A DNA stretch of 64,000 nucleotides from Candidatus Hydrogenedentota bacterium (GTDB taxonomy: Bacteria > Hydrogenedentota > Hydrogenedentia > Hydrogenedentales > JAEUWI01), in the NCBI GenBank assembly GCA_034669905.1, contig JAXMOL010000037.1, positions 18,734 through 82,733 on the forward strand, given 5' to 3'. This document shows positions 13,967 to 16,929 of the stretch, in pieces. The position numbers and the translations under genes were made by a program. Each line of letters starts with the position of its first letter. Within the stretch, counting starts at the first letter, position 1. The notes below the pieces were generated by a model. That model did not search any database. It was not told the origin of the DNA and was given only the letters and a program-made list of their open reading frames with translations.

Positions 13967-15337
13967 ATGAACGCAATTATCGCCCGAAATGTACCCTCGG
14001 CGCTTCTGATCCTGACGGCGCCCCTGCTTCTCATTGGCTGTGAGACGATGCAGCAGCAGAGCGCCACGGAGAACTACGACGAAGTCCGCAATCAGACCGA
14101 GAAAACCTCCTTCAACGTCATCTTCAATTATGATGACTCCCTGGTGGTGGACGACAGCTACGTGGCCACCCAGTATTACGAAGGCACGGCGAAAGTCGGT
14201 CGGGTAGAAGTTACTTTTCAGGCGGGCTTAAAGGAGCAGGCGGGCGAATTCGCCATGGAAATGGAGCAGCACATCGCCCATGTGGAGCGCCATTTCGGGC
14301 GTGCGCTGGAGACGCCGGTGCGGGCCTATTTGCTGCGGCGGGATACGATGCCCGGTACGGTAACCGGTGGATTTGCACCCACCAACTCGGCGTTTCAGTT
14401 TCCCCTTTTTACTGTCGAGGGCGACGAAGACTTTGAAACGATTCGCTCGGGCAACCCCTTTTACCCCTACATGTTCATCCACGAGCTCACCAAGCTGAGC
14501 CTGGTGGACCCGGCGCGGCCCCCCTTGATCCTGGCGGACCAGAAGACCAGCCCCTTGACGAAGACCAATTACCTTACCCGATGGTTCCGTGAGGGCCTGG
14601 CCAACTATGCCGAATTCCTGGTCTACGAGAAGCTCCGGGAGCGTGTGGTGGAGGGGGACGATAGGACGGCGCTTTCCAGCTTTGAGAGCAACCACGTTTT
14701 TCAGCAGCCCATGAGTGCCCTGGCGACGGTAGGACCCGAGCTCTTTAACTGGAGTCAGTTTGACGATCCCAGTCATGATCGGGATTATCTGAATGCGGCC
14801 ATGGGGCTCTTCATCCTGCTTGAGCATCGCTTTGGTGAGGGGGCGATCCGGAAGGTTATGGATACGCTTGAACAACAGTACTACGTGGATGGACAGGTCA
14901 TTATCAATGCCATCAACTCCACGCTGAACACCGACGTCCAGCAATTGGTCCAGGGCTTTGATCTCATGACGGCCGGAACCCAGGCCAGCCCGCTGACCCC
15001 GGCTACGGCCCGGAATTTTGGCCTGGCGGTGGAGCAGGGCCTCTATGTGAATGCCCTGACAGAGACGGGGGCGGCCCGTGCGGCGGGCGTACAGCGGGGG
15101 GATGTGATCATCGGGGTAAACCGCCGGGATGTGACGAACAACCTGGACTATGAGATGGCGCTCCTGGATGCGCAGGAGCACGGGAACCTGTATTTCACGG
15201 TAGACCGGCTGGGCGAACGCCATACGCTGGGGGTGAAGGTGAACATTCCGACCATCACAGCCACCGGGGCCCTGGGGGGTGTGGGCGGTGGCGGGGTGAT
15301 ATCGGGTGACGTCATGGGCTTCAGTGCTACGGAGTGA
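13967..15337 (+). CDS. Lipoprotein with degenerate gluzincin-like peptidase domain and C-terminal PDZ
   Basis: LLIGC lipobox; FIHELTK ... WFREGLANY; GAARAAGVQRGDVIIGVN PDZ. Confidence 0.75.
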   Translation: MNAIIARNVPSALLILTAPLLLIGCETMQQQSATENYDEVRNQTEKTSFNVIFNYDDSLVVDDSYVATQYYEGTAKVGRVEVTFQAGLKEQAGEFAMEMEQHIAHVERHFGRALETPVRAYLLRRDTMPGTVTGGFAPTNSAFQFPLFTVEGDEDFETIRSGNPFYPYMFIHELTKLSLVDPARPPLILADQKTSPLTKTNYLTRWFREGLANYAEFLVYEKLRERVVEGDDRTALSSFESNHVFQQPMSALATVGPELFNWSQFDDPSHDRDYLNAAMGLFILLEHRFGEGAIRKVMDTLEQQYYVDGQVIINAINSTLNTDVQQLVQGFDLMTAGTQASPLTPATARNFGLAVEQGLYVNALTETGAARAAGVQRGDVIIGVNRRDVTNNLDYEMALLDAQEHGNLYFTVDRLGERHTLGVKVNIPTITATGALGGVGGGGVISGDVMGFSATE

Positions 15338-15371
15338 CCGGGCGCAAAGTAAGAATACTGATGGGAAAAAC

Positions 15372-15400
15372 TTGCGACATCCTGTCTAAAAATGTAACAT
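15372..15400 (+). promoter_or_regulatory. Sigma70-like promoter
   Basis: TTGCGA-N17-TAACAT with TG just upstream of the -10, in an AT-rich island. Confidence 0.6.
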
Positions 15401-15499
15401 TGTCCCCATTAGAATGTATTGTATTCACGCACGGCCTTGCGTTCAGGTGCTGTGTGCTTTCAGAAATAAACAACACGTAAACGAGCTAAGGAGAATACC

Positions 15500-15592
15500 A
15501 TGTTCATCTTCGATTTTATCGGCGACGTCTTCGGATGGATCTTTGACTTCGTAGAAGGAGTCTTCAACTTCCTTTTCGGCTGGATTTTCTAG
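15500..15592 (+). CDS. Small 30-aa Phe-rich amphipathic peptide (absent from ORF track)
   Basis: MFIFDFIGDVFGWIFDFVEGVFNFLFGWIF*; RBS TAAGGAG about 6 nt before ATG; mostly C-ending codons. Confidence 0.75.
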   Translation: MFIFDFIGDVFGWIFDFVEGVFNFLFGWIF

Positions 15593-15625
15593 TCTGGGAT
15601 TTTGACGCAATTTGAGTTATGCTGA

Positions 15626-15665
15626 CAGGCGCTCTGGTCTCTTACCAGGGCGTCTGTTCTAGTTT
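15626..15665 (+). terminator. Hairpin downstream of the small peptide (terminator-like)
   Basis: ACAGGCGCTCTGGT-ctctt-ACCAGGGCGTCTGT followed by TCTAGTTT. Confidence 0.55.
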
Positions 15666-15684: not shown

Positions 15685-16929
15685 ATGTTACAGGGTTTGC
15701 CACACTTCCAATTTCAATGTTTCTCCTGTGGCGCGCTGCACACCGAAGTGTCGGTGCCGACGTGCCCCGATTGTGGCGCCCCCCTGAGCCTGGCGCTCTC
15801 GTCTTATCCGGAGGCGTCCGTCCTCACGACCCGACCCCACTCGATGTGGGACTACCAGGCCCTGCTTCCCGTACCTTCCGACGCGGATATCGTGAGTCTG
15901 GGGGAGGGGGCAACGCCCCTTGTTTCGGCGCCTGCCCTGGCCGCGAAGCACCTGCTGGGTGCGGTGGACCTCAAGAACGAGATGGGGAATCCCACGGGCT
16001 CGTTTAAGGATCGGCAGGTGGCGGTGGGTATTAATTGGGCCCGCTCGCAGGGCCATGATACCGTGGCCGTCGTGTCCTCGGGCAATGTGGCCGCCTCTGC
16101 CGCGGCCTATGCGGCCCGCGCCGGGATGAAGGCCATCCTCTTTATGCACGGACAGGCCGACCCCGCCAAAATCGCCCAGGCACAAACCTATGGGGCCACC
16201 GTGATCGCGGTGGACAACCCCTCGCCCCGCGCGGTCTTCGCGCTGTGCATGGCCGCCTGCGAAGCCCACGGATGGTACCACCTTTCCACGGCGGGCATTT
16301 ACGCGCCCTGGAATGTGGAAGGGGCCAAGACGATTGCCTACGAGCTGTTCCAGCACTATGGGGCGACGTTGCCCCATTGGCTGGTCGCCCCGGTGGGCGG
16401 CGGTGGCCTGCTGGGGGGGATCTGGCGGGGCTTCCTGGAACTCAAGGCCATGGGCCTCATTAAAGATATACCCCGACTGGCGGGTGTCCAGGCGGAAGGG
16501 TGCGCTCCCCTGAAAGAGGCCATCGACAACGACTGGTTGTTGGAAGAACACCTGGCCAATCCGTGGCCCCATCCCGACACCATTGCGGGGGCCATTGCGG
16601 ACGACATCCTTTTCGATGGTCACACGGTGTTGCCCGCGATTCGTCAGACCTGGGGCACAGCCATCACGGTGACCGACGAAGAACTGATCGCGGCCCAGCG
16701 TCGGCTCGCGAAAAACTCGGGCCTGCTTTGTGAAATCGCCACGGCAGCGGCCATCGCGGCCCTTTCCAAGCTACCCGTAGTAGACAGGGACACGCGGGTT
16801 TGTTGTATAGTGTCGGGCAGCGGCCTGAAAGATTTGGGTCGTCTGGCGGAAGGGGCGAAGCCAGTTCCCCGAATATCCGCTGATATGGATGCGTTGCAGG
16901 CACTGCTGCGCAAACAAGACGCCGAATAA
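15685..16929 (+). CDS. thrC: Threonine synthase-family PLP enzyme
   Basis: N-terminal CxxC..CPxCG; SLGEGATP, NPTGSFKDR, SSGN, EGAKTIAYE, PVGGGG; start approximate. Confidence 0.8.
   Translation: MLQGLPHFQFQCFSCGALHTEVSVPTCPDCGAPLSLALSSYPEASVLTTRPHSMWDYQALLPVPSDADIVSLGEGATPLVSAPALAAKHLLGAVDLKNEMGNPTGSFKDRQVAVGINWARSQGHDTVAVVSSGNVAASAAAYAARAGMKAILFMHGQADPAKIAQAQTYGATVIAVDNPSPRAVFALCMAACEAHGWYHLSTAGIYAPWNVEGAKTIAYELFQHYGATLPHWLVAPVGGGGLLGGIWRGFLELKAMGLIKDIPRLAGVQAEGCAPLKEAIDNDWLLEEHLANPWPHPDTIAGAIADDILFDGHTVLPAIRQTWGTAITVTDEELIAAQRRLAKNSGLLCEIATAAAIAALSKLPVVDRDTRVCCIVSGSGLKDLGRLAEGAKPVPRISADMDALQALLRKQDAE

Follow-up and report, generated by a model that had tools for sequence, protein, structure and literature searches.

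An acidic, 11-residue-periodic peptide family of Hydrogenedentota and its probable regulatory tie to a leader-peptide operon

The phenol-soluble modulins (PSMs) of staphylococci are described as short amphipathic α-helical peptides of 20–45 aa, several to a genome, and several unlinked PSMs are moved by PmtCD, an ABC exporter without a single high-affinity site (PMC12623860, PMC9974410); they fall into size classes of 20–26 or about 45 aa (PMC9974410). In perilipins, apolipoproteins and α-synuclein, 11-mer repeats have been described as forming 3-11 helices that depend on lipid (PMC5889406).

Here, we describe a 30-aa peptide encoded in a 64,000-nucleotide stretch of a Candidatus Hydrogenedentota genome (assembly GCA_034669905.1, contig JAXMOL010000037.1, positions 18,734–82,733 of the forward strand; hereafter the window). 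The peptide works most like the modulins or the lipid-binding helices of 3-11 type and is a member of neither group, because no homology was found, basic residues are absent, its length is in between and its C-terminal motif is private. As in the PSM systems, several such peptides occur per Hydrogenedentota genome, with a conserved candidate ABC exporter and an upstream motif that they share. The family's 26–37 aa fall between the two PSM size classes, and the predicted helix is amphipathic. Unlike the PSMs, the peptides are acidic, mostly without Lys or Arg, strictly hendecad in pattern and invariant in an FLFGW end, and they belong to another phylum; unlike PmtCD, the candidate exporter is encoded alongside leader-bearing peptides, GNATs and a CPBP protease. 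Searches of Pfam and NCBIfam (E up to 1) and of PDB sequences (E up to 10) with 16 family members gave no fitting family and no PSM homologue.

A period of 11, a hydrophobic moment at 98° and a predicted surface-lying helix are shared with the 3-11 helices of perilipins, apolipoproteins and α-synuclein. Unlike these, the peptide is bacterial, one third of its residues are Phe and none is basic, it has only 2.5 repeats and its hydrophobic arc is wider; no sign of homology to the 3-11 lipid-binding proteins was seen. Class A apolipoprotein helices carry interfacial Lys/Arg, which are absent in 30 of 44 distinct family sequences, including that of the window. The same aromatic 11-residue pattern is found in the phage tape-measure repeat: one of the 16 members matched PF05017 TMP (E 0.0099), and a tape-measure-type match to FtbJ (chain 9j1k_J) was returned at E 1.7, the family profile giving four chance-level rows in the PDB sequence search (E 1.7–3.9). 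Tape-measure repeats form parts of proteins hundreds of residues long that are encoded in tail gene clusters, whereas the peptides of this family are encoded by free genes of 26–37 aa, with their own signals, among housekeeping genes. Several phage proteins of at least 700 residues (L173–L176, L170) begin with a similar acidic 11-periodic segment.

No description of the peptide family or of the leader-peptide operon discussed below was found in the literature searched; supplements or databases of small-protein catalogues may list the ORFs unnamed, and PMC13219616 names the phylum in passing only.

The peptide gene and its family

The ORF lies at 15500–15592 on the forward strand and reads as quoted in the first-pass annotation of this DNA. 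Its translation, the predicted helix (residues 2–26) and the family pattern define an acidic amphipathic hendecad peptide with the C-terminus F-L-F-G-W-I-F. It contains ten Phe, two Trp, three Asp, one Glu and no Lys, Arg or His, and its Phe+Trp fraction of 0.40 is the highest among 1,507 small ORFs of the same genome that are preceded by a Shine–Dalgarno (SD) sequence. No paralogue was found in that genome by tblastn. A DNA search gave matches in nine of 41 genomes, and the reading frame, the AAGGAG and the stop codon after F-G-W-I-F were kept in all nine.

Homologues, dN/dS and synteny had been put forward in the first-pass annotation as ways of checking the ORF. With the ORF of the window (G000) as reference, nine non-identical pairs gave dN/dS values of 0.04–0.25, and the pooled pN/pS within the genus was 0.27. 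Variable columns were distributed over the three codon positions as 15/5/19, second positions varying least. The ORF is under purifying selection, and it is almost certainly a real protein-coding gene. Gene order around it is stable in the genus and the neighbours change outside. In G007 (L002/L022) the DNA of the ORF is identical to that of the window, with zero synonymous changes, though the 361-nt region is 86% identical overall; an added constraint at the RNA level or a recent exchange may account for this.

Iterated profiles were run over 135 Hydrogenedentota genomes and the better matches were inspected. Small SD-led ORFs with an F-(G/F)-W end were verified in 19 of these genomes, from eight families, a lower bound given that only part of the weak profile matches was inspected; G012 and G086 hold borderline members in addition. 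Most genomes have one copy and G022 has two. Weak matches within long ORFs (G041, G130, G038, G005, G029, G108, G119 and others), partly inspected, were dropped, as were two doubtful short frames in G026. The member in G015 (L021:615–773) has no stop after FGWIF and continues for 25 residues through the terminator-like hairpin, an extension which, as read from the sequence, may be real or an assembly error.

The members are 26–37 aa long, and the F-(G/F)-W motif is present in 42 of the 44 distinct sequences over the eight families while the remainder of the peptide drifts within the pattern. Two protein collections gave 35 and 15 matches, all of 28–53 aa and with the same motif. The ESM Atlas gave a best score of 0.79, which is of lead level only, and nothing usable for one leader-bearing peptide. 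Among contig collections, all four viral matches were segments of longer ORFs, and the nine metagenome matches divided into five family members and four segments of long ORFs. In their source records, family members are annotated, if named at all, as 'hypothetical protein'. The peptide genes form a real, undescribed small-protein family that has been missed by the family libraries.

The hydrophobic moment of the window's peptide peaks at 98°, a value reached by none of 10,000 shuffles, and its lag-11 identity of 7/19 was reached by 79 of 10,000. Over the 44 distinct family sequences the best moment angle has a median of 98° (range 94–102°); the net charge is 0 or below in all 44, Lys and Arg are both absent from 30, and Lys occurs in eight. 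Forty-two sequences ending F-L-F-G-W follow one pattern, with polar residues (D/E/G/N) at offsets −23, −20, −19, −16, −12, −9, −8, −5 and −1 from the Trp, that is, at the same four of 11 phases over 2.5 repeats, the other seven being hydrophobic. On a 3/11 wheel, seven of 11 spokes carry only Phe, Trp, Ile, Val or Leu, giving a hydrophobic arc of about 230°. The period of 11 noticed in the single peptide is thus borne out family-wide; of the two-faced 11/3 helix proposed with it, the amphipathic character stands, and the two faces proved unequal, a polar stripe of 4/11 against a hydrophobic arc of 7/11.

AlphaFold2 predicted a single helix over residues 2–26 (pLDDT 91.6), for which Foldseek returned no matches in the PDB, and the prediction of a four-copy complex scored 0.01, which speaks neither for nor against assembly. 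The longest apolar run is seven residues and the best 19-residue Kyte–Doolittle mean is 1.31, which makes a lone transmembrane anchor unlikely; a better fit would be a bundle, or a helix seated deeply in the surface. On the strength of the hendecad pattern and the predicted helix, the membrane- or lipid-binding reading is the most likely of the options originally listed for this peptide, and it is likely to be a helix of lipid surfaces.

Expression signals, neighbours and RNA-library contigs

A σ70-like promoter, TTGCGA-N17-TAACAT, is present as first annotated at 15372–15400 on the forward strand (TTGCGA 15372–15377, TAACAT 15395–15400, 17 nt apart). It has eight of 12 consensus bases, which is below the threshold of the promoter scan, where it is unlisted; TTG(C/A) and TAA(C/T)AT are retained at the same spacing across the genus. 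This single promoter had been the only start signal named. The genus alignment revealed a second promoter-like motif, TGTAAC-N18-TATTGT, at 15393–15422 on the same strand (TGTAAC 15393–15398, TATTGT 15417–15422), the first half of which overlaps the TAACAT box, and RNA folding revealed a 5′ stem-loop at 15426–15457 (+), starting at about the predicted transcription start, 15429. Hairpins of differing sequence begin at position 1–2 in G000, G001, G004, G005, G006, G008, G012 and G086, which are eight of the ten folded loci for which the second motif fixed the start. The 5′ stem-loop likely stabilises the mRNA.

The SD sequence TAAGGAG, also named previously, lies at 15487–15493 (+), and its AAGGAG is invariant in nine of nine aligned loci. 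Its mean unpaired probability was 0.17–0.74 over 16 loci, among which no conserved sequestering stem was found. Downstream, the hairpin noted earlier occupies 15624–15658 (+); it has 15 pairs, was listed as terminator-like and has a weak U-tail in the window. The hairpin scan listed two terminator-like sites against 1.8 expected, a count that alone is not above chance, and the hairpin is retained in nine of nine genus loci at −24 to −36 kcal/mol. Since the promoter falls below threshold and the terminator count is at chance, the evidence for both is their conservation. The hairpin is either an intrinsic terminator with a weak U-tail or a 3′-protecting stem that permits some read-through. Rfam gave no match above chance, the one row being PhrS at a chance-level E of 0.21.

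The upstream neighbour, outside the unit, is a predicted lipoprotein (13967–15337, +) with a PDZ domain and HELTK in place of HExxH. It also has a later EGLA motif and a Gly-rich tail, and orthologues of about 61% identity were seen at other places in four relatives. A partnership of this lipoprotein with the peptide had been suggested from their adjacency. The two genes adjoin in four of nine genus genomes, are unlinked in all four others tested, and in G020, which has the peptide, the lipoprotein was not found. The downstream neighbour (15685–16929, +) is a threonine-synthase-like PLP enzyme with an N-terminal zinc ribbon; it follows the peptide gene always in the genus, and different genes follow outside. 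Among 41 flanking proteins scanned from about 25 family and look-alike loci, none was a maturase or exporter of peptides and none could be recognised as an antitoxin or immunity protein; no storage-lipid gene was found besides two thioesterases (G049, G060). In these two genomes (G060, L046:553–1097; G049, L068:1501–2523) the member lies directly after smpB and a 4HBT thioesterase gene and abuts or overlaps the stop of the latter. The neighbours do not explain the peptide gene, which is self-standing.

Contigs from RNA libraries of a close relative cover the peptide gene in runs from four studies. In run X2, one contig identical to G007 takes in 61 nt ahead of the start and 81 nt beyond the stop. 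An RNA-library contig of a relative continues past the 3′ hairpin into the next gene. This cover is a weak hint only, because the runs were selected by the peptide gene itself, the contigs are unstranded and may contain DNA, and the contig of run X1 starts upstream of both predicted transcription starts. Runs X7 and X8 gave no cover elsewhere on a 10-kb stretch and run X2 gave a depth of 25 against 2–6 for the other listed pieces, neither of which ranks expression; run X6 covered the full length of the stretch in patches and gave a contig of far greater depth elsewhere. A 1.9-kb stretch of G007 (L057:8055–9992), flanked on either side by joints and loose ends and reaching a depth of 87 in X6, looks like a multi-copy mobile element.

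The shared motif and the leader-peptide operon

The motif TGTAAC-N18/19-TAnnnT, which we take to resemble ECF-type promoters, precedes 12 of 22 family loci: eight of nine in the genus, which are not independent of each other, and four of 13 outside. It precedes 16 of 2,894 ordinary genes of the window's genome, where control spacings gave 5–17; the background gene set was taken from a crude gene-calling model (5,085 genes). Several of the ten family loci that lack the motif, nine of them outside the genus, have σ70-like promoters. Genome-wide, TGTAAC-N17-GTA was not enriched (16 versus 6–16 at other spacings). In intergenic DNA, pairs of TGTAAC and TAnnnT numbered 13 and 9 at spacings 18–19 versus 0–5 at others, but also 9 at spacing 23. 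The motif precedes none of 33 sigma genes, so no autoregulated sigma gene was found. Other intergenic sites precede ClpC-like, short-chain reductase, glycosyltransferase and fatty-acid-hydroxylase-like genes and several predicted lipoproteins, as judged by eye from N-terminal sequences.

A scan of the window's genome for the motif and for acidic amphipathic small ORFs added about ten genes of this kind. With a profile of look-alikes that have neither leader nor FGW end, matches at E up to 0.05 were obtained in 54 of 135 genomes, part of them in long ORFs. Inspection of 22 look-alike loci showed an SD-led small ORF in 20, of which 13 are preceded by the motif. The window's genome has seven further free-standing, SD-led ORFs for amphipathic or hydrophobic products of 37–51 aa without a Pfam or NCBIfam family (L074:1688–1810, L075:1630–1740, L076:1548–1700, L077:1551–1673, L078:1504–1650, L079:1495–1638 and L080:1322–1459); one of them carries a leader, relatives of L077 occur in G006 and G030, and L079 has the TGTAAC motif.

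On contig C9 of the window's genome (L073:2150–3413 and L081:1011–6838), an array of five leader-bearing amphipathic peptides is encoded behind the motif. After the array come genes for two GNATs, a CPBP/Rce1-like protease, an ABC ATPase and a permease, and for a SPASM-GNAT protein. The leader-peptide profile matched in 115 of 135 genomes and the permease in 123, and all five operon genes were found together in 18 of 20 fetched loci. The permease matched no solved structure by sequence. The motif was found before nine of the 20 operon loci and before eight of 12 other leader-peptide loci, and the window's peptide is, on this sequence evidence, probably co-regulated with the operon.

The peptide shares with the operon the phylum, the upstream motif and the amphipathic cores, and one array peptide has an acidic hendecad core. 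This array peptide, from G116 (L144:2447–2569), joins the operon leader to the acidic core and has seven close relatives in a protein collection; similar leader-bearing acidic cores were found in G018 and G041. With the wider leaderless profile, six leader-bearing cores scored 15–26 bits (2–10 bits for reversed decoys); with the FGW family profile they scored 7–15 bits (decoys 2–7 bits). Their link, as far as the profiles tell, is firm to the wider leaderless class and weak to the FGW family; given the low FGW scores, and because tape-measure repeats also match weakly, the likeness to the FGW family may be convergent. Unlike the operon's precursors, the window's peptide is unlinked to the operon, leaderless and without their conserved Lys. 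The operon leader, MKH...PxxA, is found in none of the 44 family sequences, nor is Cys, and no FGW-type peptide was found inside the 20 operon loci. With no leader, Lys in only eight sequences and no linkage, the window's peptide does not belong to the precursors that this pathway tailors.

Weighing of explanations

The reading that we favour, tentatively, is an acidic peptide that coats lipid or other hydrophobic surfaces and is co-expressed with, and possibly exported by, the leader-peptide/GNAT/CPBP/ABC operon. Transcription would start near 15429 from the TGTAAC motif, and the resulting short mRNA, shielded by a hairpin at either end, would give abundant peptide. We propose that the peptide, with no leader and usually no Lys, needs no processing and so would escape the operon's tailoring steps. 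Seven of eleven helix positions (about 230°) would sink into lipid, leaving a thin Asp/Glu/Gly stripe exposed, and the peptide would lie on the surface as a 3-11 helix and not as a single-pass anchor, where it would work as a coat or surfactant, by itself or together with the leader-bearing peptides that the operon modifies. It might leave, modulin-like, through the same ABC exporter as these; by this analogy, export by the operon's transporter is possible rather than probable. Several observations weigh against the favoured reading: the invariant F-L-F-G-W end is more readily explained by a specific protein partner than by surfactancy in general, the 20 operon loci hold no FGW member, G022 has two family members and no permease match (in an assembly of 590 contigs), the motif is missing at ten of 22 family loci, and the helix edge has no Lys/Arg of the kind found in class A apolipoprotein helices.

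The main rival, which we consider unlikely, is an intracellular small membrane protein on the inner leaflet whose F-L-F-G-W end serves to regulate or stabilise a single conserved membrane complex. Conservation of F-(G/F)-W over eight families while the rest drifts would suit such a role, as would the single gene copy in most genomes and the lack of a leader and mostly of Lys, which leaves no substrate for the operon's tailoring; a conserved neighbour pointing to the partner is absent, however, and the patchy range (19 of 135 genomes verified), the motif-less look-alikes in many others and the variable length of 26–37 aa tell against it, the range and the look-alikes suggesting an interchangeable physical function and not a lock-and-key one. 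An intracellular self-assembling peptide, either coating storage-lipid or polymer bodies or forming a hendecad coiled-coil fibre, is improbable. Its strict hendecad register and hairpin-protected short mRNA, which suggests high abundance, would agree with this, as would the position of the gene directly after the thioesterase gene in G049 and G060; the flanking proteins include no storage-lipid gene besides these thioesterases. According to PMC5889406, perilipin 11-mer repeats coat neutral lipid, and Plin4 needs more than 66 residues of repeat for droplet targeting, which counts against a coat of 30 residues, though the window's peptide is far more aromatic.

Still less probable is an anionic leaderless bacteriocin or pore-former, a helix bundle in which the Asp/Glu stripe lines a cation-selective channel: a hydrophobic arc of 230°, a narrow acidic stripe and 30 residues could suit a transmembrane bundle, yet no immunity or transporter gene adjoins, no family matches, and slow purifying evolution with stable genus synteny is not diversification. 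Known leaderless bacteriocins are cationic. The readings that we rate lowest, as very improbable, include three put forward in the first-pass annotation, namely a type I toxin, a RiPP precursor and a ligand of the PDZ lipoprotein, together with a Phe/Trp-sensing attenuator leader for the PLP enzyme. Type I toxins are single transmembrane helices with basic residues, encoded opposite a cis-antisense RNA gene that overlaps the toxin mRNA, and have a sequestered SD sequence. A pattern scan found an antisense promoter-like site at none of 16 loci, and with no basic residue and a longest apolar run of seven the toxin reading was rejected. That of a RiPP precursor was abandoned with neither leader nor Cys in the 44 sequences and no tailoring enzyme or exporter among the 41 flanking proteins. 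PDZ domains bind hydrophobic C-termini, and the peptide ends W-I-F; the lipoprotein gene is unlinked in all four other genomes tested and the C-terminus varies outside the genus. Attenuator leaders combine regulatory codon runs with an antiterminator that overlaps the terminator. The Phe-rich ORF, the hairpin and the threonine-synthase-like gene that always follows in the genus recall this arrangement, which was rejected: the ORF has no consecutive Phe codons, no antiterminator pairing was better than in shuffles at any of nine loci, and the downstream genes differ outside the genus.

The favoured reading of a co-expressed lipid-surface peptide could be extended to a two-tier system under one promoter motif, in which leader-bearing peptides are trimmed, acylated and exported while leaderless hendecad peptides are exported unmodified, both co-assembling into a surface coat, a film or a lipoprotein-like particle. 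We regard this extension as unlikely; if true, it would be an independent bacterial invention of apolipoprotein- or modulin-type biology. Among natural amphipathic helices, a 30-mer that follows the 3-11 pattern almost perfectly, is one third Phe and lacks basic residues is in itself unusual. The main added value here is the leaderless family's probable regulatory tie to a phylum-wide peptide operon: the shared motif links dozens of overlooked small genes to the operon and turns one cluster into a likely regulon. The operon is kept by nearly all sampled Hydrogenedentota and offers a handle on the cell-surface biology of a little-studied phylum.
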